This document shows, piece by piece, positions 2,910-54,200 of a DNA stretch of 64,000 nucleotides; positions within the stretch are counted from its first letter, which is position 1; each line of letters begins with the position of its first letter. The stretch is from an uncultured Acidobacteriota bacterium (GTDB lineage: Bacteria > Acidobacteriota > Thermoanaerobaculia > Multivoradales > UBA5704). Location of the stretch: assembly GCA_963756455.1 (NCBI GenBank), contig CAVWNC010000004.1, positions 503,098 through 567,097 on the forward strand, in the 5' to 3' direction. The translations under genes and the position numbers were made by a program. The notes under the pieces were generated by a model. The model made no database searches, was not told the origin of the DNA, and saw only the letters and a program-made list of their open reading frames with translations.

Positions 2910-3268
2910 CTGTGGCAGCGGCCACCTGGGTCGATAACGCAGCCGGTGTCGGTGCTCGGCTTCGAGGCCCCCTCCGTGCAGCGGCCGTTCGGGTCGATCC
3001 AGCAGCCCAAATTGGTGCTCGCTTTGGGCGGTGCCGGTGGGACCACCTGCGTGGCACCGGTCAGGCAACGACCGCTCGGGTCGATCCAGCAACCCGTGTC
3101 GCTCCAAAGCCTTTGGAGGCTGCTCCAGGCGCGGTCCAAGATCGTCGAAGGGGCCGAGGCCGTCGTTTTCAGAGCCCTTCGCGGCGCGGCGACCGAGGGC
3201 CAGGGGAGGACGAGCACGGCGACGAACAGGAGGAAAAGGGTCTTGCGACGGAGAGAGAGGGTGGTCAT
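2906..3268 (-). CDS. small secreted protein/peptide precursor with three tandem GCWIDPxGRC repeats
   Basis: Second ATG (3268) of ORF 2906..3307(-) is preceded by a GGAG RBS. MTTLSLRRKTLFLLFVAVLVLPWPSVAAP is a signal peptide. It is followed by DTGCWIDPSGRC, NLGCWIDPNGRC and DTGCVIDPGGRC. The DNA shows three imperfect repeats of the core ggtcgatccagca (one copy variant ggtcgataacgca). The gene converges on regulator 1 and diverges from regulator 2. Confidence 0.6.
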   Translation of the reverse strand: MTTLSLRRKTLFLLFVAVLVLPWPSVAAPRRALKTTASAPSTILDRAWSSLQRLWSDTGCWIDPSGRCLTGATQVVPPAPPKASTNLGCWIDPNGRCTEGASKPSTDTGCVIDPGGRCHS

Positions 3269-3384
3269 GGAGGCTCCTGAGGAGAGGGGCTCCGCCGTGG
3301 CCGCCATGGCCCCGGGGGCGGCTCTCGATAAGAAAGGTGCACCAACTCACCATAACCGATGGAAAAACGAGGGAGGGGGTTGAC

Positions 3385-4836
3385 ATGGCGAAGAGGGGAG
3401 ATCCGAAGGTCCTGCGGTTCGTCGTGCTGTTCCTGCGCCACTATGCGGACCTGACCCAGGAGGCCTTCGGCCAGGCCGCGAGGGTCGACCAGGGGACCAT
3501 CTCGATTTACGAGGCGGGCGACAAGGCCCCACCGGAAGACGTTCTGCGGCGGATGGCGGTCGTGGCGCAGGTGCCCTGGCCGCTGGTGGTGCTCCTGCGC
3601 CGCTTCCTCACCGTCCTCTTCGCCTGGCTGGCTGGCGGGAGCGCGCTCGCGGTGCCGCGGGAGGGAACGCCGGCCGAAGAGGCAGCCCTGGAGGCGGCGC
3701 TTCTGGCGGTGGTCCCGTACCGGATCGAGGAGGCTGTAGCGGACGAGAACGGCCCCTCACCGGAGGAGGAGCGCCGGGAGGCCGAGGAGATCTGGGCCGG
3801 CCTGGAGCCCTTTCCGCTCGCCGAACGCCGGCGGTGGATCGAGCTCACCGTCCGCGCCTCCCGGAGTTGGGCCCTGGCGGAGAAAATCTGCCATGCCAGC
3901 GAGCTCGCGGCGGCGCACGAAGAGGCGATGGAGCTGGCGGTCCTCGCCATCTCGATTGCGGAACGGGTGCCGGACGAGGCGCGAAGGGCGCGCACTCTGG
4001 GCTACTCTGGGGGCTACGTCGGAAACGCTCATCGGGTCGCAACCGAATTCGAGCGCGCTCGGGCGGCCTTCGCTCTGGCCCGGGAGCACTGGAAGTCGGG
4101 TGAAGGAGCGCGTTCCCTACCCCTTGCCGGCTGGCGGCTGGAAGACCTCGAAGCGTCGCTCTACACCGATCGACGCCAGTTCCCCGAGGCTCTGGACTGT
4201 CTCAACCGGGCTTTAGCGGCCTGTGGAGACGATGCCTTGGCGGTCGGGCGTATCCTGACGAAGAAGGCGCATGTCCTGGAACAGTTGGGCGACCCCGCGG
4301 GTTCTCTCCAGGCCTTGGAACAGGCGACTCCCGCGATCGAAGCTTCTGGCGATCCGTAGCTCCTCTTTGAGCTTCGCTTCAACACCGTGGCCAACCTTGT
4401 CCACCTGGAGCAATATGAAAAGGGAGAGCGGCTCCTCGCCGAGGTGCGCGAGATGGCGGTCGCGCAAAGAAGGAATCTCCACCTGATCCGCCTGACGTGG
4501 CTGGAGTCTAAGGTAGCCGCCGGGCGGGGACGGACGGAGGAGGCGAAGGCCGGCCTGGAGCAGGTGATCCAGGAGTTCGCGGGCCTCCCCTATGAAGCAG
4601 CTTTGGCCTCCCTGGACCTGGCGGTGCTCCAACTCAAGGAAGGGCGCACGGCCGAGGTGAAGGAGCTGGCGGGCGCCATGGGCGGGATCTTCGAGGTCAA
4701 GGGGATCGCTCGGGAGGCGCTGGCGGCGCTTCGACTTTTCTGCGAGGCCGCGATCCAGGAGGGCGCTACGGTCGAGCTGGCGAAGCAAGTGATCGCTGAG
4801 GTGGAGAGAGCCCAGCGCGCGAGCTCTCCTGCGTAG
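3385..4836 (+). pseudogene. XRE-HTH + TPR regulator paralog 2, interrupted by an in-frame amber codon at 4357-4359
   Basis: ATG 3385 with a gagggaggggg RBS. ORFs 3031..4359 and 4387..4836 share one frame (both coordinate mod 3 = 1). Alignment to paralog 1 reads ADPNQLFALRFN against GDP*LLFELRFN, so a single nonsense change separates the halves. Confidence 0.6.
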
Positions 4837-4892: not shown

Positions 4893-5192
4893 CGTGGAGA
4901 CACAACAATCGGACCCAGAAGCCCATGGGAGGGGTTTCCGGACACTACGGCGAGCCGTAGAGACACAAGCGCTGGTCCTGGAGACACTACGGGAGGACGT
5001 AGAGCCACTACGCTTACGACTGTAGACACTACGGAACGATCCAGAGACACTACGTTTTCTGCTGGAGACACTACGAAACGAGCTGGAGACACAAGAAACT
5101 CTGGCGGAAGCGAAGGACACGGCCTGCCGTAGTGTCTCGCCGACCGGTTCCCGGGTGTCGACGGGGGACCTTTGTGTCTCTACGCCAGCAGG
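4893..5192. repeat. array of 21-bp tandem repeats (about 9 direct copies, consensus tgGAGACACTACG + 8 nt) plus 2 inverted copies, abutting the 3' side of tRNA-Leu
   Basis: Successive units include tagagacacaagcgctggtcc, tggagacactacgggaggacg, tagagccactacgcttacgac, tgtagacactacggaacgatc, cagagacactacgttttctgc, tggagacactacgaaacgagc and tggagacacaagaaactctgg. Inverted copies are cgtagtgtctc at about 5128 and tgtgtctctacg at about 5172. Track ORF 4857..5132 (DTT heptads) is its translation artefact. Confidence 0.7.
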
Positions 5193-5208
5193 GTACGAAG
5201 GTCCAGAG

Positions 5209-5291
5209 TGCCGGAGGCGGGACTCGAACCCGCATGCCCTTACGGGCGGAAGATTTTAAGTCTCCTGCGTATACCATTTCGCCACTCCGGC
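5209..5291 (-). tRNA. tRNA-Leu, anticodon UAA
   Basis: Reverse complement reads GCCGGAGUGGCGAAAUGGUAUACGCAGGAGACUUAAAAUCUUCCGCCCGUAAGGGCAUGCGGGUUCGAGUCCCGCCUCCGGCA. There is a 7-bp acceptor stem GCCGGAG/CUCCGGC, an anticodon loop CUUAAAA, a long variable arm and a GGUUCGAGUCC T-arm. CCA is not encoded. Confidence 0.8.
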
Positions 5292-5377: not shown

Positions 5378-6463
5378 ATGTATCGTGAGCCCGACCTCTC
5401 TCTGCCGCACTTCGCCGCCGCCCCCGACTGCCGCTTCACCCCGGCGCCGGCGGACACCGTCCTCCCCGATGGGTTCATGTCGACGACCGACCATCCGACC
5501 TACGTCAAGATCGCGGGCCGCTGGCGGATGCCCGAACGGCCGCGCATGGACTCCCACCTGGTTTGGGACCCCGCCACCGAGCGGTTGATCGTCAAGGAGT
5601 TCCGCCTCGTCCGCCAGGGCGACCTCGTGGCCACCGTGCGCGCCGAGGACGGCTCGGAGGGGGTTCTCGTCTGGGATCACGGCTTCGCCGACGAGGTCGA
5701 CCAGACCGCCGCCGAGGCGTTCTCGTTCATGTCCTCCGAGGTGAGCCGGGAGAAGCCGGTCAACTACGATGCCATCTTGAAGGAATTCCTCAACAACCGG
5801 GGCGATCGCGGCTACATCCTCTGGGTGATCGGGCCGGCTCTCGTCCATGCCCGCGGGCGCCAGGCCATGGAGTGGATGATCCACCACGGCTTCTGCCATG
5901 GCCTCATCTCCGGCAACGCGGTGGGAGTCCACGACGTCGAGGCCGCCCTCTACGGCACGACGCTCGGCATGATGGCCGACGGGTCGGGGAGCGCGGGCGG
6001 GCACATCACCCACATGCGGGCGATCAACGAGGTCAAGAAGGCGGGCTCGATCCGCGCTCTGGTCGACGACGGGCGCCTCAAGAGCGGCATCATGCACGCG
6101 CTTACGGTGACCGGCACGCCCTATGTCCTCGGCGGCTCGATCCGCGACGACGGTCCGCTGCCGGAGACCCTCGCCTCCGTCCTCGACGCCCAGGCCGCCA
6201 TGCGCGAGCTGACCGTCCAGGCGACCATGGTCGTCATGGTGGCGACCGCCCTCCACGCCATCGCCGTCGGCAACATGCTCCCCACCTTCTGCGCCCGCCC
6301 CGACGGCTCGATCTCGGAGGTTACGACCATCTGCGTCGACCAGACCGAGTTCGTCGTCAACAAGCTCAAGGACCGCGGCACCCACCAGGCCTTCGGCGTC
6401 GTCACCAACGCCCAGGACTTCCTCCGTCTCCTCCAGCTCGAGCTCCAGGAACGGGTCGGATAG
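5378..6463 (+). CDS. conserved hypothetical protein, possibly a LOR/SDH-like (TIGR00300-type) enzyme
   Basis: Track ORF 5132..6463 begins inside the tRNA, so the start is taken at ATG 5378 (MYREPDLS...). Globular composition with GGHITHMRAINEV and GNAVGVHD motifs. Family assignment is from memory and tentative. Confidence 0.4.
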   Translation: MYREPDLSLPHFAAAPDCRFTPAPADTVLPDGFMSTTDHPTYVKIAGRWRMPERPRMDSHLVWDPATERLIVKEFRLVRQGDLVATVRAEDGSEGVLVWDHGFADEVDQTAAEAFSFMSSEVSREKPVNYDAILKEFLNNRGDRGYILWVIGPALVHARGRQAMEWMIHHGFCHGLISGNAVGVHDVEAALYGTTLGMMADGSGSAGGHITHMRAINEVKKAGSIRALVDDGRLKSGIMHALTVTGTPYVLGGSIRDDGPLPETLASVLDAQAAMRELTVQATMVVMVATALHAIAVGNMLPTFCARPDGSISEVTTICVDQTEFVVNKLKDRGTHQAFGVVTNAQDFLRLLQLELQERVG

Positions 6464-6504
6464 ATAGGTAGCTCCGGCGGCTGGCCTCCGGCATCGCGAT
6501 CTGG

Positions 6505-6905
6505 AATCCCGTAGATCCACGCCAGGGGCAGGGTACTTTGGGCTTGGATCTATGTGGTTCCAGTTTGAAACCACGTAGATCCACGGCGGAAGTCGGGTGC
6601 TTTTGGCGTGGATCTAGGTGGTTCCAGTTTGAATCCACGTAGATCCACGGCGGAGACCGGGTGCTTTTTGTCGTGGATCTGGGTGGTCCTGGTTTGAAAC
6701 CACGTAGATCCACGGGCGGAGGCCGGATGCTTTGGACGTGGATCCAGGTGGTTCCAGTTTGAAACCACGTAGATCCACGGTGGAGGTCGGGTGCTTTTGT
6801 CGTGGATCTAGGTGGTTCCAGTTTGAAACCATGTAGATCCACGGTGGAGGTCGGGTGCATTGGACGTGGTTCTACAGGCTTCCGGTTGGGAACCCGTAGG
6901 CCCAT
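6505..6905. repeat. tandem array of about six 64-bp units, each with a 16-bp-arm hairpin (GTGGATCTAGGTGGTT-ccagtttga-AACCACGTAGATCCAC) plus a conserved 23-bp linker
   Basis: Units start at about 6543, 6608, 6673, 6738, 6802 and 6866, the last one degenerate. Linkers are ggcggaagtcgggtgcttttggc-like and conserved between units, so these are not CRISPR spacers. Every copy shares the same single G-G mismatch in mid-stem. Confidence 0.75.
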
Positions 6906-7073
6906 GCGTCCCACCGCCGGGCGGGCGGTGGTGAGCCAGGGCGGGGGTGCAGGCGACACGGTAGGGCATTCTACGATCCCGTTGCGGTCCCGTGGCTCTG
7001 GGTCGACCAGACTCGGAGATTCGTCAGAGGCGAATCTGCAGGGGTGAGCTTGCAGGTGTTTAGCCTTACCGGC

Positions 7074-7427
7074 TCACCGGCGCTTCTGTTTTCCAGGGGT
7101 GGCAGTCCCGAAGTAGCTCGCTGTTGCCTGTTCGAGGAGGAGTGCTGCGACCTGCATGGGGCTTACTTGCCGGTCCCCCGCGCTGAGCAGACTGGCGAGC
7201 TCTTTGAGACGTTGCTCGGTTTCAGGAGCCATGGGCACCTTCGGCCTTTTACTCCATGCCGGATTGGAAGGACGACCAGGACGCTTACCGGAGCTCGGTT
7301 CCAGTCGCCCTCGCAAGCTCTCCGCCAGCGCTGCCATGCCGAAAGCACCCGCGGAGTAATCGGGCACAGTACCTACCATGGTAGCGCCAAGTTTTTTCGC
7401 CAAGGACTCAATGTTCTTAGCCATCAT
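7074..7427 (-). CDS. putative ribbon-helix-helix (CopG-like) DNA-binding protein, 117 aa
   Basis: KRPKVPMAPETEQRLKELASLLSAGDRQVSPMQVAALLLEQA fits a strand-helix-helix RHH pattern. It overlaps the upstream ORF by 11 bp. Confidence 0.4.
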   Translation of the reverse strand: MMAKNIESLAKKLGATMVGTVPDYSAGAFGMAALAESLRGRLEPSSGKRPGRPSNPAWSKRPKVPMAPETEQRLKELASLLSAGDRQVSPMQVAALLLEQATASYFGTATPGKQKRR

Positions 7428-36367: not shown

Positions 36368-38154
36368 GCTTCTATTTCGATCGCTTCGAGGATCGCCGCC
36401 CGCCCGCGCCGTTACCTTATTCGGCGGCCCGGGAGCTCCTCTGGCAGTTCCTCGCGGCCTTGAGCCTCGGGCTCGGCGCCTGGTACATCGCCTGGCGTTG
36501 GGGCGGGTCGCTCAACCGCCAGGCGCTGTGGTTCGCCATCCCTCTGGTGCTGGCGGAAACCTGTGCCTATATCGGCATGGTCCTCTTCACCTTCAACCTC
36601 TGGCGCGACACGCCGCCGTCGATCCCCGAGCCGCCGCGCCGGATCGCCGAGTGCGTGGCCGCCGCCGTGGCGGAGGACCGGCCGCTCCGGGTGGACGTCT
36701 TTTTCCCCACCTACAACGAGGAGCTCGACCTCGTCCGGCTGAGCGTCGAGGACGCCAAGCGGCTCTCCTATCCCTATCCGATCGATATTCGCATCCACGT
36801 CCTCGACGACGGTCGCCGCGACGACATGCGGCAGCTCGCGGCGGAGCTCGGGGTCGGCTACATCACCCGCACGAGCAAGGCCGGCTTCAAGGCCGGCAAC
36901 CTGCGAAACGCCATGGAGCAGACCGACGGCGACTTCATCGTCATCTGCGATGCCGACACCCGGCCGTTCCCCACTCTCCTGGAGCACACGCTCGGCTACT
37001 TCCGCGATCCCGAGATGGCGTGGGTGCAGACGCCGCAGTGGTTCTTCGATCTCCCCGCGGGGAGCCGTCTGCCGGCGGCCTGGGGGCGCCGGCTGGGGGC
37101 CATCGGCCGTCTTCTCGGGCGGGGCGTCGAGGCCTGCATCGGGCCGGTGACGGTGGGCGCCGATCCCTTCGTCAACGATCCGCAGATGTTCTACGACGTC
37201 ATCCAGCGCCGTCGCGGTTGGGCCAACGCCACCTTCTGCTGCGGCGCGGGCTCCGTGCACCGCCGGGAGGCGGTGATGGAGGCGGCGGTGAAGGGTTGGG
37301 TGGCGCAGATCGACGACGAGGTTCGGCGGGTGAAGGAGAGCCTGGGGGAGGCAGACGTCCCTGGTGGCTTGGAAGCGGCGATGCGCCGCCAGGTCGCCCG
37401 CGACATCGAGCTCACGCCCTACAAGTTCCACGTTTCGGAGGACATCTACACCTCGATCGTCCTCCACGGCGACCGCGACCGGCACTGGAAGTCGGCGTTT
37501 CACCCCTATGTGCAATCGAAGATGCTGTCCCCTCAGGATCTGCAGACCTGGGCCATCCAGCGCTTCAAGTACGCCGGCGGCACCCTGGACATCTGCCTGC
37601 ACGACAACCCGGTCTTCCGGCGTGGTCTCGACTGGCGGCAGAAGGTGATGTACGCCTCGACTTTGTGGTCGTATTTCGGCGGCCTGTGGAACGTCGCCTT
37701 CCTCGCCTCGCCGGTGATCTTCCTGTTCACCGGCATCGCCCCGGTTGCGAGCTACTCGTTCGAGTTCTTCAAGCACGCGCTGCCGTTCCTGATCGCCAAT
37801 CAGCTCGCGACGATGGTGGGCACGTGGGGCGTCGAGAACCTGAAGGGCAAGGGCTCGTTCATCTCCTTTTTCTCGCTCAACCTGCGCGCCCTGTGGACGG
37901 TCGTGCGCGGCGAGACGATCAAGTTTCCGGTCACCCCCAAGGAGCGGCAGAGCGGTACGTTCTACCGCCTGGTGAAGCCGCAGATCGCCTTCATCGCCCT
38001 CACTCTCGCCGGTCTCCTCGTGCAGGCGCTGCGGCTTCTCTTCTGGCACCGGGGCGATCCCGGCGCCTACCTGACCAATCTTTTCTGGGGCTTGAACAAC
38101 GTCTACCTGCTGTCGGGCATCGTCCGCGCGGCGGGCTTTAAACCCGAGGAGTGA
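36364..38154 (+). CDS. membrane GT2 processive beta-glycan synthase (cellulose-synthase-like), lacking a PilZ domain
   Basis: Start overlaps the GH9 stop. TM helices flank a GT-A domain with VFFPTYNEE, VLDDGRRD, IVICDADT (DxD), TEDI-like VSEDIYTS and a Q-R-F-K-Y variant of QxxRW. Confidence 0.65.
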   Translation: MSFYFDRFEDRRPPAPLPYSAARELLWQFLAALSLGLGAWYIAWRWGGSLNRQALWFAIPLVLAETCAYIGMVLFTFNLWRDTPPSIPEPPRRIAECVAAAVAEDRPLRVDVFFPTYNEELDLVRLSVEDAKRLSYPYPIDIRIHVLDDGRRDDMRQLAAELGVGYITRTSKAGFKAGNLRNAMEQTDGDFIVICDADTRPFPTLLEHTLGYFRDPEMAWVQTPQWFFDLPAGSRLPAAWGRRLGAIGRLLGRGVEACIGPVTVGADPFVNDPQMFYDVIQRRRGWANATFCCGAGSVHRREAVMEAAVKGWVAQIDDEVRRVKESLGEADVPGGLEAAMRRQVARDIELTPYKFHVSEDIYTSIVLHGDRDRHWKSAFHPYVQSKMLSPQDLQTWAIQRFKYAGGTLDICLHDNPVFRRGLDWRQKVMYASTLWSYFGGLWNVAFLASPVIFLFTGIAPVASYSFEFFKHALPFLIANQLATMVGTWGVENLKGKGSFISFFSLNLRALWTVVRGETIKFPVTPKERQSGTFYRLVKPQIAFIALTLAGLLVQALRLLFWHRGDPGAYLTNLFWGLNNVYLLSGIVRAAGFKPEE

Positions 38155-38167
38155 AAGGAGCGGCGCC

Positions 38168-39526
38168 GTGACGTTCAAGGAAGGGCTCATCCTGTCGCGT
38201 GGCCATCTCGTCTTCCTGGCCGGTCTCGCGGCGGCGTTCGGCATCGCCATCGCGCTCGAACGGGAAAAAATCCAGGTTCCGGTCCATGCGTCCGCTTCCC
38301 AGGTGACGGCGACGATGACCGCTCCGGGTCCGCCGCTGGCGCTGCCGGCGGTTCCGCCGCCCGGGCCGCTGTCGGCGGCGGACCTGGCGCGGGCGCAGCG
38401 GGCCTGGTCCTACTTCGAGGTCAACCGGCGACCGGAGACCGGGCTCGTCGACTCCGTCGACCGCTATCCGGCGACGACGATGTGGGATACGGCCTCCTAC
38501 CTGATGGCCTTGATCGCCGCCCGCCGCCTGGAGGTGATCCCACAGGCGACTTTCGATGCGCGGATCGCGGCCGCCCTGGGCGCCCTCGCGCGGCTGCCGC
38601 TCTTCGCGGGCAAGCTGCCCAACAAGTCGTACAACACGCAGTCTCTCGCCATGGTCGATTACAGCAACCACCCCACGCCGCGCGGCATCGGCTGGTCGGC
38701 GATCGACATCGGCCGCCTGCTCGTGCCGATGAACATCCTCGTCTGGCAGCAGCCGCAACACACCCCGGCCGTGCGCGCGGTCGTGGCGCGCTGGCAGCTC
38801 GCCGACCTGGTGCGCGACGGCCGGCTCTTCGGGGAGATCCTGAAACCCGACGGCCAGGTCGCGAGCCAGCAGGAGGGGCGCCTGGGGTACGAGGAGTACG
38901 CGGCCAAGTCGTTCACGCTCCTCGGGCAGGACGTCTCCGAAGCCCTCGGATACCGGGAGTTCGTGCAGTGGGTGAAGATCGACGGCATCGAGGTCGCGAC
39001 CGACAGCCGGACGCCGCAGCTCTTCGGGGCGCACAATTACGTCGTGAGCGAGCCCTACGTCCTCGACGGCCTGGAGTTCGGTTGGGATCGCGCCAGCCGC
39101 GATCTCGCGGCGCGGGTCTTCGCCGCGCAGGAGGCGCGCTTCCACCGCACCGGGGTGCTCACCGCGGTGAGCGAGGACAACATCGACCGGGCGCCCTATT
39201 TCGTCTACAACACCGTTTTTAGCGACGGCAAGGCGTGGAACACGCTGACCGACACCGGGGCCGATGCTTCGGTCGACCGGAGCCTGAGCGTCAAGGCGGC
39301 CTTCGGTTGGGATGCGCTCTACCGGACGGCCTATACCGCCCAGCTCGTCGCGGCGGTCGAGGGTCTTTACGATCCGGCGCGCGGCTACTATTCCGGCCGC
39401 TACGAGAGCGACGGCCAGCCGAATCGGGCGATCACCTGCAACACCAACGCGATTCTTTTGGAAAGCCTCGCCTACCGTCACCTCGGCCCGCTGGTCCAAG
39501 GCGACGCCGGGAAGAGCGCGCCATGA
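38168..39526 (+). CDS. paralog 1 of an unidentified about 450-aa secreted/membrane-anchored family
   Basis: GTG start with an AAGGAG RBS. N-terminal TM anchor. Family motifs are RAWSYFEVN, TGLVDSVDRYPATTMWDTASYLMAL, LPNKSYNT, IGWSAIDIGRLL and QEGRLGYEEYAAKSF. Confidence 0.6.
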   Translation: MTFKEGLILSRGHLVFLAGLAAAFGIAIALEREKIQVPVHASASQVTATMTAPGPPLALPAVPPPGPLSAADLARAQRAWSYFEVNRRPETGLVDSVDRYPATTMWDTASYLMALIAARRLEVIPQATFDARIAAALGALARLPLFAGKLPNKSYNTQSLAMVDYSNHPTPRGIGWSAIDIGRLLVPMNILVWQQPQHTPAVRAVVARWQLADLVRDGRLFGEILKPDGQVASQQEGRLGYEEYAAKSFTLLGQDVSEALGYREFVQWVKIDGIEVATDSRTPQLFGAHNYVVSEPYVLDGLEFGWDRASRDLAARVFAAQEARFHRTGVLTAVSEDNIDRAPYFVYNTVFSDGKAWNTLTDTGADASVDRSLSVKAAFGWDALYRTAYTAQLVAAVEGLYDPARGYYSGRYESDGQPNRAITCNTNAILLESLAYRHLGPLVQGDAGKSAP

Positions 39527-41055
39527 CGCCGCGTTGGCCGGCCTTTCTGCTGGTCGGCATCGCCGCGCTGACCGCGCTGGGGGGCCCTCTCGGCTGCAGC
39601 GGCTATGCGGCGAAGGCGGCTCCCGCGACGAGCGCGGCCGGCACGGCGGCCGTCTCCAGGGTGGAGCGCGAAGCGACGGCGGCGGCGGCCTGTGCCACCG
39701 GGCAGGGGCAGACGCAACCGGTCTGCTGCATGGCGACCGCGGCCTGCTCGGGCACGGCCCGTCATCCCGGGCGGAACGGCTGCCTGACGCCGAAAGAGCT
39801 CGAAATGGCGAAGATCGCCTGGCGGTACTTCGAGAACAACGAGCAGAAAGAGACCGGCCTCGTCAACGCCGTCGACACCTACCCGTCGACCACCCTGTGG
39901 GACACCGCCTCCTACCTGGGGGGGCTGATCGCCGCCCATCGCCTCTGCCTCATCCCGACGAGCGAATTCGATCGCCGGGTCGTCGCCCTGCTCCACACTC
40001 TGGGCTCGGTTTCGCTCTACCGGGGCGAGCTGCCGAACAAGGTGTACAACACGAAGACGGCGGAAAAAGTGAACTATGGGAACGTTCCCGGTGAGATCGG
40101 CTTTTCCGCCCTCGATATCGGCCGTCTCTTGATCTGGCTCCGCATCCTCCGCGAGTACTATCCGGAGCACGGCAACGCCGCGGACAGAGTCGTCATGCGC
40201 TGGAACTTCTGCCACGTCGTCGACGCCTGCGGCACCCTCTTCGGGGCCTACATCGATACCGACAAGTCGACCGTCTACGCGCAGGAGGGACGGCTCGGCT
40301 ACGAGGAGTACTCGGCCCAGGGCTTCGATCTCTGGGGAGCACCGGCGCCGCGGGCGGAGCTGCCGGAGCCCTACGCCGTCATCCCGATCTACGGCATCGA
40401 CATCCCGTACGACACCCGCGACCCGCGGGAGCTCAAGGCGCACAACTACGTCGTCTCCGAGAGCTACATCCTTTCCGGCATCGAGCTCAACTGGGACCTG
40501 GCTTCCGACAAGAGCGAAGACGACATGCACCACAGCATCCCCTGGATGGCGGATTTCGCCGACCGCATCTACCGCGTGCAGGAGGCGCGCTACAAGGCGA
40601 CAGGAATCGTGACGGCGCGCACCGAGCACCAGCTGGACAGCGCACCCTACTTCGTCTACGACACGATCTTCAGCGACGGCTTCGCCTGGAACACGATCAC
40701 CGAGGAGGGCCTGTATTCGCCGCGTTTCGCGGCGATCGCGATCAAGGGCGCGCTCGGCCTCTGGGCACTCTGGGATACGCCTTATACCGACCTGCTGTTC
40801 CGCATCGTCGCCAACAAATACGATCCGGAGAAGGGTTTCTACGAGGGGATCTACGAGGACGGCCGGGGCGTGATCAAAACCTTCACCGCCAACAACAACG
40901 GGATTCTCTTAGAGCTCCTGCTCTACAAGGTGGAGGGCAAGCTCCTGCGCTTCAGCGGCGCGCCGAGCCTCTGGGAGCACTATCTGGTCAACGAGCGCTC
41001 GAACGGCGCGGTGCGCTGCGTGCCGCGCAGTGTCAGCTGCAAGGATCCACCTTGA
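39523..41055 (+). CDS. paralog 2 of the same family, lipoprotein
   Basis: ATGA overlap with paralog 1. Lipobox LGGPLGC. Same motifs: TGLVNAVDTYPSTTLWDTASYLGGL, LPNKVYNT, IGFSALDIGRLLIWLRI and QEGRLGYEEYSAQGF. Confidence 0.6.
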   Translation: MTPRWPAFLLVGIAALTALGGPLGCSGYAAKAAPATSAAGTAAVSRVEREATAAAACATGQGQTQPVCCMATAACSGTARHPGRNGCLTPKELEMAKIAWRYFENNEQKETGLVNAVDTYPSTTLWDTASYLGGLIAAHRLCLIPTSEFDRRVVALLHTLGSVSLYRGELPNKVYNTKTAEKVNYGNVPGEIGFSALDIGRLLIWLRILREYYPEHGNAADRVVMRWNFCHVVDACGTLFGAYIDTDKSTVYAQEGRLGYEEYSAQGFDLWGAPAPRAELPEPYAVIPIYGIDIPYDTRDPRELKAHNYVVSESYILSGIELNWDLASDKSEDDMHHSIPWMADFADRIYRVQEARYKATGIVTARTEHQLDSAPYFVYDTIFSDGFAWNTITEEGLYSPRFAAIAIKGALGLWALWDTPYTDLLFRIVANKYDPEKGFYEGIYEDGRGVIKTFTANNNGILLELLLYKVEGKLLRFSGAPSLWEHYLVNERSNGAVRCVPRSVSCKDPP

Positions 41056-42476
41056 GGTCAGGGCCGTTGCGCGGTCGCTGGTGCCGGGCTCTCTCGCTCG
41101 CGGCGGCGATCCTGCTCGCCGGCTGCGGCGTGATCGTCCGCGGTGTCTATCGTGGGGTCTCTTCGGTCCGCGATTCCGAGCTCTTCCACCAGGGCCGGCA
41201 CGGCCCCTTGAGCGACGAGGAAAAGGAATGGGCGAAGGCGGCGTGGAAATACTTCGAGAACAATGAGAACCCCGCGACCGGGCTCGTCGGCTCGGTCGAT
41301 CAGTACCCGGCCGCGAGCCTGTGGAACCTGGCGGATCACCTGGCGGCGATGCTCGCCGCCAAAGAGCTCGGGCTCATCACCCAGCGCGACCTCGACGCCC
41401 GCCTGAGCCTCACCCTCCAATTTCTCAACACCATGCCCCTCTTTCTGGATCGGCTGCCCAACCGCCTTTACAACACGGCGAGCGGCCGCATGGTCAACTA
41501 TGCCAACCAGCCGGAGGCGATCGGCTGGTCGGCGATCGATCTCGGCCGGCTGCTGCTCTGGCTGCGGATCGCCGCCCAGCGCTACCCGGCCTATCGGGAG
41601 TACATCGAGAAAGCCGTGCTCCGCTTGAGCTTCTGCGACGTCGTGGACGAGTGCGGCGGGCTCCACGGCGGCGCCCGCATGCAGGATCGGCTGCAGCTGC
41701 TGAGCGAGGGGCAGCTGGGCTACCAGCAGTACGCCGCCCTGGGCTTTCAGGCCTGGGGCTTCGACACCACCCGCGCCTCGCGGATCGCGCCTTTCGCGCG
41801 CCTCAAAATCGACGGCGTCGAGATCCTCTACGACGCGGAAGATCCGAGAGAGACCGGCGGCTTCGCGCCGGTCCTCTCCGGCCCCGCCGTGCTGGAGGGC
41901 CTGGAGCTCAACTGGGATCGCGTCGACGACCGGACGAGCAACGACACCGAGCACAGCGATTTCGTCCTGGCGGATCTGGCAGAGCGCATCTACGCCGTCC
42001 AGGAGGCCCGCTTTCGGCAGACCCACGTGCTGACCGCGCGGACGGACCATCCGCTGTCGCAGAACCCTTTTTTCGTCTACGACTCGATCTTCGTCGCCGG
42101 CTATCCGTGGAACACCATCTCCGATCACGGCGACGTCTTCCTCGACAAGTCGCTGGTTTCGACCCGCGCCGTCTTCGGCCTCTGGGCGCTCTGGCGGACC
42201 GCCTACACCGACGAGCTGATGCGCGGCACGCGCCACCTCTACGACCCCCAGAAGGGGTGGTTCGAGGGGCGCTACGAGGCGACCGGCGGCTACGAGCGGA
42301 CGATCTCCTGCACCACCAACGCCATCGTCTTGGAGAGCCTCCTCTACAAGCTTCAGGGCAAGCTCTTCGGGCGCGACGCGCCCGGCTCGTATCTGACGGC
42401 GTTCCTGGCCGACCCGTTCCGCCATCCGGGGCGCTGCTTTCCGAACGAGAGGGCGGGATGCAAAGGCGAGCCTTGA
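41052..42476 (+). CDS. paralog 3 of the same family, lipoprotein (TTG start)
   Basis: Lipobox LLAGCGV. TGLVGSVDQYPAASLWNLADHLAAM, LPNRLYNT, IGWSAIDLGRLLLWLRI and SEGQLGYQQYAALGF. Confidence 0.55.
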   Translation: MRSGPLRGRWCRALSLAAAILLAGCGVIVRGVYRGVSSVRDSELFHQGRHGPLSDEEKEWAKAAWKYFENNENPATGLVGSVDQYPAASLWNLADHLAAMLAAKELGLITQRDLDARLSLTLQFLNTMPLFLDRLPNRLYNTASGRMVNYANQPEAIGWSAIDLGRLLLWLRIAAQRYPAYREYIEKAVLRLSFCDVVDECGGLHGGARMQDRLQLLSEGQLGYQQYAALGFQAWGFDTTRASRIAPFARLKIDGVEILYDAEDPRETGGFAPVLSGPAVLEGLELNWDRVDDRTSNDTEHSDFVLADLAERIYAVQEARFRQTHVLTARTDHPLSQNPFFVYDSIFVAGYPWNTISDHGDVFLDKSLVSTRAVFGLWALWRTAYTDELMRGTRHLYDPQKGWFEGRYEATGGYERTISCTTNAIVLESLLYKLQGKLFGRDAPGSYLTAFLADPFRHPGRCFPNERAGCKGEP

Positions 42477-44449
42477 TCCGCTGGGCGCGACTCGGGCTGA
42501 GAGCCGGCCGGATCGCGATCGTGATCGCGCTCGCCGCCGCTCGCTCGGCTCCGCTCGTCGCCCTCACGGATCCCAACACCCACGGGCGCGAGTTGCTCCA
42601 GGCCGGCGACCCGCGCACGGCGGGGGTCGCCTGGCTCGCCGCCGCCGCGGAGCAGTCGCGGGAGGGGAGCAACCCCGGCGTCCTGCGACAGGCGGCCCTG
42701 TCGGCGGTTCTCGCGACGATCGCTTTCGAACGCGCCAGGGATGGGCGCGCCTATGTCGCCTGGTCGCAGGCGATCCGCTGGTGGCTGGAGGCCGGCACCT
42801 CCTGGGAAGTGGAGCGCGCGGTCCTCGGCCGGCGGGTCCGCGAGATCCAGGCCAGCCTGCGGGGCGCGGAGGTGACCGCCGGAGGTCCCACCCCGGCGGC
42901 GGGGGAGCTCCAACTCCTCGCGCTCGCGTCCGCCACCGGCTTTCTCGACTACTCGGGGCCGCGGCCGGGCCTGCCCTCTCCCCAGGAGGACGCCGGGCTG
43001 CCGATCCCCGTGCAACGCGACTACTTCGCGCGTCCGCTGGGGGTGGAAGAGGAGGAGAAGAGCGCTCCCGAGACGCGGGGCCGCGTAGCAGAGGAGCCGC
43101 CGCCGGCCCTGGCTCTGGACCCCACTGCGAGCCCGGCCCCAGTTTCACCTGCCGGGCTTGGCGGGCACGGCTTGCCGAGCGCGGGCTCCCCCGCGGAGAT
43201 CACTCCCGCTCCGACTCCCAGCCTGCCGCCTCCGGCGCCTACGCCTGAGAAGCCCGCCGAGCCGAAGGGCGAGGCCGCGCCGCTCGCCATGACGGACCTG
43301 GCGGTGGCGCGGGCGGCCTGGCGGTACTTCGTCGCCGCCCGGCAGGAGAACACCGGGCTCTACAACTCCGTCGCCGGCTACCCCTACGCCACCCTGTGGG
43401 ATCTGGGCAGCGGGCTCGCCGGCCTGGTCGCGGCCGAGCAGCTCCACATCCTCGATGCGGGGAGCTTCCACCGCGATGCCGTGCTGTTCTTGACGACGCT
43501 GCGTGAGATGTCGCTCTACAAGGGCGAGCTGCCCAACCGCGAATACCAGACGCAGAGCGGCCGCATGGTCGATCTCCTAAACCACCCGTCGCCGGTCGGA
43601 AGCGGTTGGTCGGCGCTCGACCTCGGACGCCTGCTGATCTGGCTGCGGATCACCGCCGACTTCTATCCGGACCTCCGCCCGCGGGTCGAGAAGGTGGTCC
43701 AGCGGTTCGATTTCTCCCGCCTCGCGGCCGGCGGCGAGATGCACGGGGCGATCGTCACCAAAAACGGCGAGAGCCTCAACCAGGAAGGGCGCTTGGGCTA
43801 TGAGCAGTACGCCGCCGCCGGTTACGCTCTCTGGGGCGTGGCCCTCCAGGCGGCGCACGGCTACGGAGAGATCGTCTTCACCCCGCTCGACGGCCAGAGC
43901 GTCCCGCGCGACCGGCGCGAGAACGCCAATCTGACGAGCGACCCGTTCATCCTCGCCGGCCTCGAATTGGGCGGCATCGACCCGACCTTCCAGGGTTTCA
44001 CCGAGACCGTCCACGCCGCCCAGCGGCGGCGTTTCGAGACGACCCGGATGCTGACCGCGGTGGGGGAGGATGCGCTCGACCAGGAGCCCTGGTTCGCCTA
44101 CAACTCGGTCTTCGCCGACGACCGGCCCTGGCAGTGCCGGAGCGCCGGCGGCCGCGACGTTCCCGAGCTGCGGACGCTCGGCACCAAGGCGGCGTTCGGC
44201 TGGGCGGCCCTCTACCCCGACGACTACGGCAAGCGCCTGCGCCGGGCCGTCGAGCCGTTGCTCCATCCGCGCCTCGGCTTCTACGCCGGGATCTACGAGC
44301 GCGATGGCGCGACCAACAAAGCGCAGAACGTCAACACCAATGCCGTCATCCTGGAAGCGATGCTCTTCTTACAGCGCGGCGGCAAGCCCTTTCTCGACCT
44401 CCCGGCGATCCCGGCCGGGCCGGAGCCTCAGCGCGGCACCCAGCGGTAG
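42458..44449 (+). CDS. paralog 4 of the same family with an about 280-aa N-terminal extension and a Pro/Ala-rich linker
   Basis: ATG 42458 with MQRRALIRWARLG signal-anchor. TPAPTPSLPPPAPTPEKPAEPKGEAAP linker. Then TGLYNSVAGYPYATLWDLGSGLAGL, LPNREYQT, SGWSALDLGRLLIWLRI and QEGRLGYEQYAAAGY. The 5' portion of track ORF 41321..44449 is an out-of-frame artefact. Confidence 0.55.
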   Translation: MQRRALIRWARLGLRAGRIAIVIALAAARSAPLVALTDPNTHGRELLQAGDPRTAGVAWLAAAAEQSREGSNPGVLRQAALSAVLATIAFERARDGRAYVAWSQAIRWWLEAGTSWEVERAVLGRRVREIQASLRGAEVTAGGPTPAAGELQLLALASATGFLDYSGPRPGLPSPQEDAGLPIPVQRDYFARPLGVEEEEKSAPETRGRVAEEPPPALALDPTASPAPVSPAGLGGHGLPSAGSPAEITPAPTPSLPPPAPTPEKPAEPKGEAAPLAMTDLAVARAAWRYFVAARQENTGLYNSVAGYPYATLWDLGSGLAGLVAAEQLHILDAGSFHRDAVLFLTTLREMSLYKGELPNREYQTQSGRMVDLLNHPSPVGSGWSALDLGRLLIWLRITADFYPDLRPRVEKVVQRFDFSRLAAGGEMHGAIVTKNGESLNQEGRLGYEQYAAAGYALWGVALQAAHGYGEIVFTPLDGQSVPRDRRENANLTSDPFILAGLELGGIDPTFQGFTETVHAAQRRRFETTRMLTAVGEDALDQEPWFAYNSVFADDRPWQCRSAGGRDVPELRTLGTKAAFGWAALYPDDYGKRLRRAVEPLLHPRLGFYAGIYERDGATNKAQNVNTNAVILEAMLFLQRGGKPFLDLPAIPAGPEPQRGTQR

Positions 44450-50987: not shown

Positions 50988-51299
50988 TTAGCCCTGGGAG
51001 TCGGAGCCGGTGGAGACCTCCGGTTCATCGTCAGTCGCCGTCTTTGACTTGCCCTCGCTGTCGACCGTCCCCAAGGCGTAGACGCAGATCTCCTCGAAAG
51101 AGACCCGGTTCTCCTCAGCAATGTCCATCAGCTTCTGGAAGCTTTCCATCACCTCCGGGGGCATGGTGCCGCTGCGCATCTCCCGCAGCCAGGCGGCCTG
51201 GAACTTGAGCGGGTGGCGCCCCGAAAGGGGTTTGCCGACATAGATGTGGAACGGGGCCTTGGTGCCATTGAAGTCACAGGGAATCGTGAATCGCTTCAT
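50988..51299 (-). CDS. small conserved hypothetical protein (103 aa) translationally coupled to the STAND gene
   Basis: MKRFTIPCDFNGTKAPFHIYVGKPLSGRHPLKFQAAWLREMRSGTMPPEVMESFQKLMDIAEENRVSFEEICVYAL. I recall this N-terminal pattern from a DUF-type small-protein family (possibly DUF2610), but cannot verify it. Its ATG overlaps the STAND TGA (ATGA). Confidence 0.5.
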   Translation of the reverse strand: MKRFTIPCDFNGTKAPFHIYVGKPLSGRHPLKFQAAWLREMRSGTMPPEVMESFQKLMDIAEENRVSFEEICVYALGTVDSEGKSKTATDDEPEVSTGSDSQG

Positions 51300-54200
51300 C
51301 CCTCCTGCCTCTCTTCTCCCGGGCGCGGGCGTTGCCGGCCGAGGTCGATGGTGCCGTTGAGCTCCAGGAGCAGCTCGTGGAAGGTCTGATCCAGGCGCCC
51401 CACGTGCCGGATGGTCTCCTTCCGCTTCCCAGAGGAGTCATTGCTCTCGAGGAGATAGACATCCCGCCGGCAGTGCGGGTGATCCACGGCGCGCGTCAGG
51501 GCGGAGAGGATCGCGTCGCGCTCCTCCGGCGGGCGGTAGAGGTTGCGCGCCAGGGCGGCGAGCGCCCGTCCGGTCGCATAGGCGGCGACGCCCGGCGCGG
51601 CGACGAGGTCGTCGAAGAGCTCCTCCAGAAAGGCACGATCCACGTCGCGGTAGCGGCCGATCGACCCGATCGCCGTCCTCTGGACATGGCCGACGTCCGC
51701 CAGGCCCGATCGCACCGCCACCTTGGCTTCGGCATCGAAGCGGCGCAGGTAGCTGAGCAGGATCAGGGCGGCCTGCCGGCCGGTATAGCTACCCTGGAAC
51801 CGCGCCGCATCCCGGAGGAGAGGCGCGAGGTCGGGGAGAGTCTGCGCCTCCGCGAGGAAGGAGATCGGCAGCTTCTCGGCGGCGACGGCGAGAACGGCGA
51901 GAAGTTCGCTCTTGGGGTCGGTGAACCAGGAACGATCATCCGGCATCTCATGGCGGAGCTCGTCGGCCAGCCAGCTCATCAGGACTGCCAGGAGGTGCGG
52001 ACTCTGCTCCACCCGCTGGGCGGCGGCCCGGATCCTTTCGTGATAAGGCTCACCAGCCCAGACCAGACCTCCCAGCTTCTTGAGTGTCTGGCGCAATTCC
52101 TCGCTATCCGCGTCGAGCAGCCGGGAGAGCGGCTGGCGCTTGGCCGCGAAGATCTGCCTGGCCGCGGCGGCCATCGGACCCATCGGCAAATTCCGGTGGG
52201 TCCGCCAGGCGAGGTCTGCCGCCTCGACCAGGGCGGCCGGATGATCCAGGAGATACGTGTCCTGGGTTAAAGCAGCGCGGGATATCCCCCGGACGGAGGG
52301 CGCGATCTCGGCCCAGCGCTCGGGCGTGATCCAGTCTCGATCGAGCAGTCTGCAGACGCTCCGGAGCAGCGCCCGTTGCGCCTTGGGAGAGGGTTTCGCG
52401 ATTTCCTTGACGAACCTTCGCCAGGCGCTTCCTGTAATCTTTTGAATGTCCCCCAGGATCAGGCGGGCCTCCTCCCCTTCTGGAGTCTCCTCGGCCGCCT
52501 CCTCCACCCAGGTGGAGAGGCAGCGTTCATCATTGTGCCGGGTGCGCTCGAACGCCCAACCGATCGCCTGGGCAACCTGCGCCTGATCCCGGCAGTCGAG
52601 GAGGGCCCGGGCCAGGCGATGGAGCGTTCGCGATCCCAGAGAGGAGACGTTGAAAATACGATGCAGGTCCGAGAAGTCGCCATACAGGGCCAGGGCCGCG
52701 CGGTAGCGGGTGCGATCGTCGGGATGGGAGAGGAGCTCGATCAAGGCCGGCAGGGTCAGCTCCGAGAGATCCTCGACCTCGGCGAGCAGGAGATCGCGGT
52801 AGCGGCGGACCTCCGGGTCGCCGCCGGCCGGCCAGCGCCGCACGATGGGCAGCACGGAGGCGTCGGGATTCTGGACCCACGGCAGGATCTCGCGCACGAG
52901 GCTGTCCTCTCCGCCTTCGAGGAGCCTGCCGAGCGTCACGGCGGCCTCGCGGGTGAGTCGAAGCCCAGAGACACGGGAGCGCTGGCGAAGGGCGTCGAGC
53001 GCCTCTTGCCGGCGAGGTGTGTCGAGGACTTGCCACAGGCCGGCTGCGTCCCAAGGCAGGAGGAAACGCTGTTGAAGATCATGGATCGTCGCTCCCAGGA
53101 GGAGTGCGGACAGGCCGCTGTCGCGCTCCGCGAGGGGCGCGGCATAGAGCTCAAGAAGCGGGGCCGCGGCGCGCTCCGCCTGGGCACGCCACCGCGGATC
53201 GCGGAGGCCGGCGACGAGCCGCTCGAAGCGGTCGCGGAGACTCCCGCCACCGGGCAGGGCGGACCGCAGGCTGAAGAGCGCTGCGGCCCGGCGTTCTTCG
53301 TCGAGCGCCGCGACGTCGTCGAGCGCCAGGGCGAGCAGAGCGTTGCTCTCTTCCAGGGGGAAGGCCGCCGCGAGCCGAGCCAGGGTTCGCGCGCGCTGTT
53401 CATGCCGGCGGGCCGGGATGCTCAGTGCCGCCTGCCGGGCGCGCCGCATCCACTCCTCCGGCTGGTGGCCGAGTGCGGCCAAGCGCTCGCAGGCCCAGGC
53501 CCGGAGCAACGGATCGGTGATCGCCTGGGCGGCACGGGGCGCGGCGGCGGCCAAGACCGCGCTGCGCTCCGTCACCGCCGCCCGGAGTCTCCCCCAGAGG
53601 CTACCTTGCGGCCGGTTGCCCTTGAGGACCGCAGGGTCGGGCGTCGCGAGGAGCTCGCCGCGCAGGTCCGAAAAGTGGCGGAGGAGCTGCCAATAGCCGC
53701 GAAAACGCAAGTATGGATCGGTGATCCCCTCGATCTCCGCCAGGAGCTGGGCGATGGGATCGACTGCGAGCAGGAGCTCCGCGTCCGGATCTCCCTGCTC
53801 GAGGAGGGCCTGGATCGTCTCGGTCCGGGTGGCGAAGCGGTCGGAGAGGCTACCCAAAGCAAGGATCAGCGCCTCAGGGAGGAGCCCGTGCTCCGGGAAG
53901 AGGGGCGCGAGGACGGTCAAGGCCCAGCCGCGGACGAAATCGAACGGTTCGTCGAGCGCGGCGAGGGCGTCCAGGGCGGCGACGAGGACATCGCGCGGAC
54001 CTTCCGGCAGGGGAGCCAGGCGGTCCAGAGCCCAGCCGCGATGTCCCTCCCAGAGTCCGTTGGCACTCTCGTGGGCGACGGCGAAGGTCTCGGCGAGGAG
54101 CATCGGCGAAGCGGCGAGTTGGCCGGCTGCGGTGTCGAGAACGACCGCCAGGCTGTAGACCGGATCTTCGGCGGAGCCCGCGAACGCGTTCTGCCAGGCT

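Follow-up and report, generated by a model that had tools for sequence, protein, structure and literature searches.

What kind of element is a row of some six hairpins, each followed by the same short linker, in a bacterial chromosome? The question is raised by a locus of an uncultured bacterium of the Acidobacteriota (Thermoanaerobaculia; Multivoradales; UBA5704), in which an array of 64-bp units occupies positions 6496-6905 of the stretch analyzed here; this stretch comprises 64,000 nucleotides (positions 503,098 to 567,097 of contig CAVWNC010000004.1, assembly GCA_963756455.1) and is referred to below as the window. A first-pass annotation, made from the letters and a list of open reading frames (ORFs), had taken the array for either a tandemly amplified structured RNA or an element resembling repetitive extragenic palindromic (REP) sequences or miniature inverted-repeat transposable elements (MITEs). 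The answer that we favor, at a probability of about one half, is that it is a non-coding palindromic repeat cluster operating at the level of DNA, built on a plan like that of REP325 and of the BIME-2 class of bacterial interspersed mosaic elements (BIMEs), probably bound by some factor and situated in a Thermoanaerobaculia chromosome. It represents a new family, and a very rare one, within a class of bacterial repeats that is already known; the inversion of its modules and its occurrence, so far, in arrays only are mildly unusual.

The array is real and lies outside genes, without coding signal. It consists of five intact hairpins of 41 nt, two eroded hairpins at its ends and six conserved linkers of 23-24 nt (Table 1), that is, of a 64-bp module in which a 41-bp near-perfect palindrome is joined to a 23-bp linker, repeated head to tail about six times with a period of 64-66 bp. 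Tandem Repeats Finder (TRF) delimits it to 6510-6874 (period 64, 5.7 copies, 85% matches, score 495), and a search for the 16-nt arm at up to three mismatches returned 11 matches, every one within the array, where shuffled sequences predict 0.17; these two results confirm the tandem hairpin-plus-linker array of 64-bp units that had been described from inspection. The accompanying statement that the same central G-G mismatch occurs in every hairpin holds for four of the five intact hairpins (G.G at arm position 10) and fails for unit 1, which has T.G.

Table 1. Coordinates of the array components, of the spurious reading frame over them and of the neighboring two-gene cassette (positions in the window).
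Feature	Position	Strand	Remarks
Eroded first hairpin (unit 0)	6496-6520		right arm CCCGTAGATCCAC alone intact
Linker L0	6521-6543	+	GCCAGGGGCAGGGTACTTTGGGC; divergent edge copy
Hairpin 1	6544-6584		16-nt arms, 9-nt loop; T.G replacing the G.G mismatch
Linker 1	6585-6607	+	GGCGGAAGTCGGGTGCTTTTGGC
Hairpin 2	6608-6648		GTGGATCTAGGTGGTT-CCAGTTTGA-ATCCACGTAGATCCAC; G.G mismatch present
Linker 2	6649-6672	+	24 nt
Hairpin 3	6673-6713		left arm CTGGG, CTAG lost
Linker 3	6714-6737	+	24 nt
Hairpin 4	6738-6778		left arm CCAGG, CTAG lost
Linker 4	6779-6801	+	GGTGGAGGTCGGGTGCTTTTGTC; includes the family-invariant core GAGGTCGGGT
Hairpin 5	6802-6842		
Linker 5	6843-6865	+	3' end TTGGAC, shared with the last linker of L007
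Eroded terminal hairpin	6866-6905		GTGGTTCTACAGGCTT-CCGGTTGGG-AACCCGTAGGCCCAT; orthologous to the L007 terminal unit
Spurious 185-aa ORF over the array	6402-6959	-	not a gene; used as protein-level probe for related arrays
Two-gene cassette, ORF117	7074-7427	-	116/117 aa; overlaps ORF131
Two-gene cassette, ORF131	7417-7812	-	131 aa

The reading frames that run across the units had been called spurious, and this judgment stands. A frame plot of the GC content at third codon positions (GC3) marks a clear gene up to 6463 (GC3 0.9-1.0), but between 6464 and about 7400 no frame stands out; the repeat period is not divisible by three, the 185-aa ORF has no Pfam match, and in the orthologous array introduced below (L007) an in-frame-capable TAG is kept in every unit and closes the ORF. 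A coding repeat is ruled out by the absent GC3 signal, the period and this closure; a mini-ORF starting from a GTG in the linker was likewise rejected, as it is not present in the related array L005. That the array is CRISPR-like only to the eye was also correctly seen from the start, since its linkers are copies of one another, are conserved in three other loci and are accompanied by no cas gene found in the window.

Relatives of the array were sought at the level of DNA and of protein. No match was obtained when 72,556 plasmid and 50,697 phage records were searched by blastn, by a pattern scan of viral contigs, or by two pattern scans of one genome per species in 185,579 species; a plasmid or phage origin is rejected on the empty results of the blastn searches and the viral contig scan. 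The first genome pattern and the metagenome pattern were too strict, demanding outer GTGG...CCAC bases that are not present in the related array L004, and the second genome scan was relaxed to the positions common to diverged copies; the one metagenome pattern match (L001) turned out to be a chance half-site in AT-rich coding DNA. The spurious array ORF served as a protein probe against 5.8 billion predicted proteins and in an exhaustive scan of 1.84 billion cluster representatives, and the former search gave a protein of 257 aa (P0121) and the latter one of 45 aa (P0123), both of which are spurious translations of related arrays whose DNA was recovered (L004 and L005). Another candidate, P0122, was a false positive, being a genuine FG-GAP-type repeat protein, and a composite protein probe yielded nothing further. 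A fourth array, L007, was met while tracing homologs of the two-gene cassette. There are therefore three related metagenomic arrays, of which L007 is orthologous to that of the window while the other two lie in unrelated contexts: L004 is bordered on one side by the 3' end of a zeta-toxin-like ATPase gene and on the other by a gene of unknown function, and L005 lies near a DinB gene.

A mismatch search and nhmmer both covered the remaining 63.6 kb of the window and about 105 kb of related loci, and neither revealed a unit standing alone or as a doublet. The family is very rare and, as far as is visible in these sequences, restricted to arrays. The MITE-like, dispersed element proposed in the first-pass annotation does not agree with this, and neither the window, the related loci nor the 185,579 species genomes contain the unit as a common dispersed REP. 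Several short-read contigs end in or at the array, namely a 2,143-bp Logan contig (ERR11718634, which includes the cassette), L005 and probably the contigs P0144 and P0145, which carry an adh_short gene; such ends at the repeat imply that it breaks assemblies.

Comparison with the orthologous array shows how the units change. The window and L007 share a 5.9-kb block (two MacB genes and the cassette) that is 94.3% identical, followed in L007 by an extra APH-family phosphotransferase gene (6830-7597) and then by the array, while on the opening side beyond the array there is an ArgZ-like gene in the window and an adh_short gene in L007. The APH stop codon lies within the eroded terminal repeat unit of L007 (7549-7610), and where L007 has this gene the window has a GC-rich stem at 6910-6931 and about 150 bp of unrelated DNA. 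Both arrays have the same plan: an eroded half hairpin opens each, five units follow intact, and the eroded unit at the end is the same one in both. This identical unit count indicates that copy number has been stable over this divergence; the array is inherited as a whole. Eroded first units also open L004 and L005, and beyond the eroded edge units no unique leader or trailer is conserved across the loci.

The two orthologous arrays are 84% identical overall, and by component the identity of their units amounts to 92.9% in the arms, 86.7% in the loops and 77.4% in the segments between hairpins; for comparison, third codon positions are 89-92% identical and intergenic DNA elsewhere 88%. Measured against these benchmarks, single units are not under strong purifying selection and linkers evolve faster than neutral. 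Internal linkers read GG(C/T)GGAG in the window and GGC(T/C)GAG in L007, and internal loops read CCAG and CTGG, respectively; the edge units erode and keep their orthology while the internal units carry array-specific variants. This pattern is that of the concerted evolution of a tandem repeat. Shared CTGGG and CCAGG variants had suggested that the units of the window and of L004 are orthologous one by one, which was rejected because the distance matrices were inconsistent.

A different picture is obtained when the four arrays are compared by module. With all linkers co-oriented, the window and L007 have G-type arms on the left and C-type arms on the right, a G.G mismatch and a GTT loop; L004 has C-type arms on the left and G-type arms on the right, a C.C mismatch and an AAC loop; and L005 has the same arm order and C.C mismatch as L004 together with a GTT loop, so that its arms are flipped and its loop is not. 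All four L004 hairpins fit the window better when inverted (33-36 of 41 positions versus 29-33 of 41), and the linker core GAGGTCGGGTGCTTTTG matches at 17 of 17 positions between the window and L004 in one orientation only. From these configurations it follows that the whole hairpin, and separately the loop, has been inverted relative to a polar linker, each flip state being uniform within one array, as concerted evolution would give. In addition, at about 563-608 of L004 two linkers abut at a spacing of 86 bp versus the usual 65, one 41-bp palindrome having been precisely lost. Flips and hairpin loss are the types of event expected of palindrome-mediated template switching or recombination.

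Conservation between diverged arrays is uneven. The 10-nt linker core GAGGTCGGGT and both 14-nt arms are near-invariant between array consensuses, and in the comparison of the window with L005 arms and core match at 37 of 38 positions, the loop and linker flanks at 14 of 26 (Fisher p = 3e-5); the outer CAC is conserved neither in L004 nor in L005. Such unevenness indicates that arms and core are constrained and, since flipped hairpins are tolerated, recognition that is independent of orientation (of duplex or cruciform DNA, or of the mere stem) fits best, and recognition of an asymmetric RNA or single DNA strand fits less well. One source of recurrent variation within the arms can probably be named: CTAG is strongly avoided throughout the window (12 occurrences outside the array versus about 84 expected under a Markov model), GATC is not (523 observed, 488 expected), and CTAG has been lost from three of the five intact left arms, so that the recurrent changes from CTAGG to CCAGG or CTGGG in the window and L004 are probably parallel mutations due to a genome-wide avoidance of CTAG. 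Likenesses to DnaA boxes, parS, attC and IHF sites were checked by eye and found to be poor.

Among known systems, the closest in plan are those in which short palindromes are repeated in tandem together with the DNA between them. REP325 of E. coli comprises six units of 77 bp, in each of which two palindromes are combined with a constant linker, and is the source of HU-binding RNAs (PMC4550694). BIMEs are regularly spaced REPs in alternating orientation, and BIME-2 elements are tandem repetitions of such BIME-1-like units and bind gyrase (PMC2817692), while clusters of REPs reiterated in tandem with flanking DNA segments have also been described (PMC3733652). The array of the window shares with BIME-2 and REP325 an intergenic location directly after a gene, about six tandem units, and a cruciform-capable palindrome alternating with a constant linker (PMC4550694, PMC2817692), and its period of 64 bp is of the same order as the 77 bp of REP325. 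Measured against the definition of a BIME, the regular 64-bp spacing is present and the arms alternate, but an individual arm is not itself a palindromic REP; each unit has one long palindrome (arms of 14-16 bp, 9-nt loop) where the E. coli clusters have a pair of short, dissimilar REPs (Y and Z2). The array is not similar in sequence to BIME-2, and its host belongs to another lineage, the Acidobacteriota. The resemblance to REP- or MITE-like elements that had been noted thus persists in one respect, the architecture of clustered palindromic repeats, and lapses in another, as dispersed units were not found in the sequences searched; membership in the REP superfamily is unproven, with a GTAG that is internal and paired and stems that are too long.

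Other families show part of the same plan. The NIMEs of Neisseria, in which dRS3 inverted repeats alternate with RS units, and the pneumococcal BOX elements with their tandemly variable boxB module combine short inverted repeats with conserved segments in intergenic arrays and are linked to rearrangement breakpoints, but they have different sequences and unit sizes and are dispersed families of high copy number. Mycobacterial MIRUs are intergenic tandem units of 50-80 bp in a high-GC genome that can give rise to small or spurious ORFs; they do not take the form of long palindromes and vary in copy number, whereas the orthologous arrays of the window and L007 have identical numbers of copies.

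As to mechanism, slippage during replication, together with unequal exchange and gene conversion among the units, may have produced the array and may maintain it, while flips and the loss of a hairpin would come from palindrome-mediated template switching or from recombination within the arms. The invariant arms and core may be kept by a trans-acting factor that reads them irrespective of hairpin orientation, the likeliest candidate being a protein that would recognize the palindrome as duplex or cruciform DNA, e.g., a nucleoid protein, a gyrase-like protein or a mobilizing enzyme. In transcripts reading through from flanking genes, the very stable hairpins might in addition act as a 3' barrier, from either side.

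A number of observations weigh against a BIME-2/REP325-like cluster. Dispersed single copies were found neither in the 63.6 kb of the window nor in the related loci, and among the ORFs scanned across the 64-kb window there is no RAYT (REP-associated tyrosine transposase) or other transposase; each unit is, as already described, one palindrome with a long stem. The strong conservation of arms and core at the level of the family argues for a specific function, and no candidate binding protein travels with the array, since L004 and L005 have other flanking genes and 10 other loci contain the adjacent cassette of two genes without an array; taken together, differing neighbors and array-free cassettes imply that no protein gene is consistently linked to the array. 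Transcription, cruciform formation and protein binding of the array are all predictions drawn from its letters.

One alternative, in our opinion an unlikely one, is that the array is the gene of a non-coding RNA with several hairpins, serving as scaffold or sponge in the manner of the CsrB/RsmZ type or of the HU-binding naRNA4 of REP325. In such a gene the single-stranded linker core (GGAGGUCGGGU or its complement) would be the functional motif and the hairpins would be structural spacers independent of orientation, so that hairpin flips would be neutral if the stem alone matters. This is consistent with a core that is invariant in four of four array consensuses, with a linker polarity relative to array start and end that is the same in all four loci, and with the transcription of REP325 units into naRNAs (PMC4550694). 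Folding as RNA, which had been suggested as a check, gives very stable hairpins throughout, at -25 to -28 kcal/mol each (z -2.7 to -6.1), and folding as DNA about -12 to -13 kcal/mol per hairpin.

The remaining RNA-level checks do not bear out a tandemly amplified structured RNA. Rfam 15 has tRNA-Leu as its sole match over the window and none in the array, and in permissive mode the array gives nothing but miRNA-precursor noise of at most 34 bits against gathering scores of at least 45 (79 for the best match), eukaryotic miRNA-precursor matches being what any long hairpin gives. A promoter scan of the array returned no promoter-like site, and a consensus scan for intrinsic terminators (a GC-rich stem with an immediate U tract) returned none; the U-rich tract that had been noted after the hairpin exists as a TTTT but lies inside the linker, about 16 nt beyond the stem, and is no terminator tail. 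Covariation across 18 hairpins of the four arrays scores 0.099 versus a shuffle mean of 0.104, with 346 of 500 shuffles as high or higher: five arm pairs never vary, six depart solely by unpaired cells, and the changes that do occur are one-sided and pair-breaking, not compensatory. As the arms are nearly invariant this test is low in power and, pairing potential coming from arms that hardly vary, it neither proves nor disproves folding. Two of the four arrays have their hairpins inverted with respect to the linker, which is hard to reconcile with one conserved RNA strand; the orientation of the array relative to flanking genes is inconsistent across loci, and individual linkers diverge faster than the neutral benchmarks between orthologous arrays.

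It is also doubtful that the locus is one tandem cluster of miniature mobile elements of the REP/REPIN type, copied by a RAYT (Y1/HUH) encoded elsewhere. In its favor, the genomic contexts of the related arrays are of three unrelated kinds, the enzyme would have its recognition elements in the invariant arms and core, and a GTAG tetranucleotide is found once per hairpin; moreover, the array stands at a synteny breakpoint, as in the loci of the two closest relatives of the ArgZ-like gene (L002 and L003) the next gene follows 85 and 9 bp on and DNA homology to the window stops at 6471 and 6464, 1-8 bp past the ArgZ-like stop codon. REP families usually have more than 100 copies, though some have 20-100 or fewer (PMC2817692, PMC3733652), and they often form tandem clusters (PMC3733652); the GTAG and CGTC superfamilies and REPIN-RAYT systems resemble the array as extragenic palindromic repeats with tandem clusters and small families, and REP dimers can fold as one large stem-loop like the array unit (PMC3733652, PMC3116915). 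On the other hand, solitary units and doublets are absent from the sequences searched, the species genomes gave no match to either pattern, and the ORFs scanned across the window include neither a Y1_Tnp nor any other transposase. A REP is defined by a stem of 5-13 bp, a loop of 2-20 nt and a GTAG or CGTC tag that stands unpaired at one end (PMC3733652), whereas the unit, which is extragenic and palindromic, has a stem of 14-16 bp with one internal mismatch, longer than this range, and a GTAG inside the right arm, three of whose four bases pair with the left arm. Strand-specific recognition by an HUH enzyme is also hard to square with hairpins that are flipped relative to the linker.

A further, tentative possibility, which we likewise hold to be unlikely, is that the array would be a new, sequence-specifically recognized chromosomal element of the Acidobacteriota, or that the array relocates between loci as a whole by an undescribed mechanism that also flips its hairpins. 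Phased palindromes free in orientation, interleaved with a polar 10-nt core, would then nucleate a nucleoprotein or RNA-protein assembly, which might serve as a nucleoid organizer of the HU/naRNA kind, as an insulator, or as a sponge RNA presenting GGAGG/CCUCC between clamps.

A dedicated array of phased protein-binding sites, either a centromere-like (sopC-type) or iteron-like relic of an integrated plasmid or element or a site for the titration of a regulator, is quite improbable. Near-invariant palindromic arms insensitive to orientation would suit it, as would a period of 64-65 bp, nearly six helical turns, that is kept by every one of the four arrays, and sopC of plasmid F is likewise built from tandem units that each contain an inverted repeat. 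Against this, no par, rep or other DNA-binding gene is common to the loci, no partition or replication gene lies near any of the arrays, the array has no similarity to plasmid, phage or viral contig records, the surrounding genes are ordinary chromosomal ones, and the neighboring small proteins show no DNA-binding family, the borderline model of ORF131 being closer to ferredoxin-like than to DNA-binding folds.

A type III toxin-antitoxin-like (ToxI-like) RNA array serving the ORF131/ORF117 cassette, or a degenerate CRISPR, is exceedingly improbable and effectively refuted by cassette loci without array and by the conserved linkers: the array does adjoin a small mobile two-gene cassette in the window and L007, and 5.5-6 copies with a partial end unit resemble ToxI, but it lies downstream of the cassette and not upstream of a toxin gene, no gene on either strand has the arrangement of a co-transcribed ToxN/AbiQ-type toxin directly behind the array, there is no PADLOC match for the array neighbors, L004 and L005 have different neighbors, and the would-be CRISPR spacers are copies of one sequence with no cas domains found in the window.

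The array is situated just after an ArgZ-like/saccharopine-dehydrogenase-like gene (5378-6463), within a gap of about 1.6 kb of lower GC content; on the far side of the gap a MacB/FtsX permease operon begins at 8052. The ArgZ-like protein has thousands of homologs, of which the closest (81-96% identical) are metagenomic and labeled Thermoanaerobaculia or Acidobacteriota. An assignment of the locus to an actinomycete, with a tRNA-Leu(UAA) of the bldA type, was rejected on these homologs. The remainder of the window is ordinary chromosome, and neither transposase or RAYT genes nor integrase, cas, par or rep genes were found among the ORFs scanned. The permease operon comprises two full-length tandem MacB/FtsX paralogs (813 and 824 aa) and a truncated third FtsX (12980-13606) within 8052-13606, and L002 has a single 381-aa relative at the corresponding place.

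The neighboring cassette is a mobile-like two-gene module of unassigned function. Its 90%-identity cluster has 45 members, it is found in at least five different genomic settings in Thermoanaerobaculia metagenomes and, from this distribution, it appears to behave like a mobile module; it is often located beside toxin-antitoxin genes (PIN/NikA-like, Gp49/HTH). At an identity of at least 90% it is present in 10 other loci and four other contexts, all without the array, and on this ground a functional link between the array and the ORF131/ORF116 cassette was rejected. The 131-aa protein matches phrog_3543 (E = 4e-7), and its low-confidence model (predicted TM score, pTM, 0.58) has a weak ferredoxin-like likeness to phage SAM lyase and CutA/PII folds (TM about 0.4-0.5), while the model of ORF117 (pTM 0.32) is too poor for a fold search. 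Neither predicted model supports a DNA-binding role, and no DNA-binding family was found in the neighboring small proteins.

Several other features of the window and of the related loci were recorded. A second, unrelated repeat cluster lies at 4940-5200, directly 3' of a tRNA-Leu(UAA) on the minus strand (5208-5291), and has at least six direct units of about 21 bp with the core GAGACACTACG (TRF 4978-5099) and inverted copies near 5128-5143 and 5180-5195. To the left, GC3 is lower and proteins with HTH and TPR domains are encoded (1401-2909, 3031-4359); this region may derive from an element that once inserted at the tRNA, but no integrase was found. L005 has a separate repeat at 455-581, about 120 bp from its hairpin array, with a period of 40 bp (20-bp sub-period) and inverted ACGAACGCTTACG motifs; a relation between it and the 21-bp repeats of the window was rejected, as they share only 9-10 nt (E at least 0.03). 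Elsewhere, the product of a minus-strand ORF at 51296-58375 (2,359 aa) combines a CHAT protease domain with a NACHT/STAND NTPase domain, as is typical of defense or conflict systems, and the plus strand at 38096-44449 encodes four consecutive DUF3131 paralogs (38168-39526, 39235-41055, 41052-42476 and the C-terminal part of 41321-44449), which adjoin genes for glycosyl hydrolases of families GH2 and GH9.

In conclusion, a BIME-2/REP325-like palindromic cluster at the level of DNA is the reading that we prefer for this locus, which adds to the clustered palindromic repeats a clean and very rare case from a little-studied uncultured lineage. Four copies make it possible for the family to be dissected into concerted evolution, eroded edges, the precise loss of a hairpin and the independent inversion of arms and loop with respect to a polar linker. 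Arms and core are near-invariant where the remainder varies freely, a contrast that suggests a factor reading them. Arrays of this kind are also of practical importance as they break short-read assemblies, three of the short contigs examined stopping within or directly at the array, yield spurious hypothetical proteins and can pass for CRISPR arrays. If the array is transcribed or bound by protein, it would extend nucleoid biology of the REP325/naRNA type beyond the enterobacteria.

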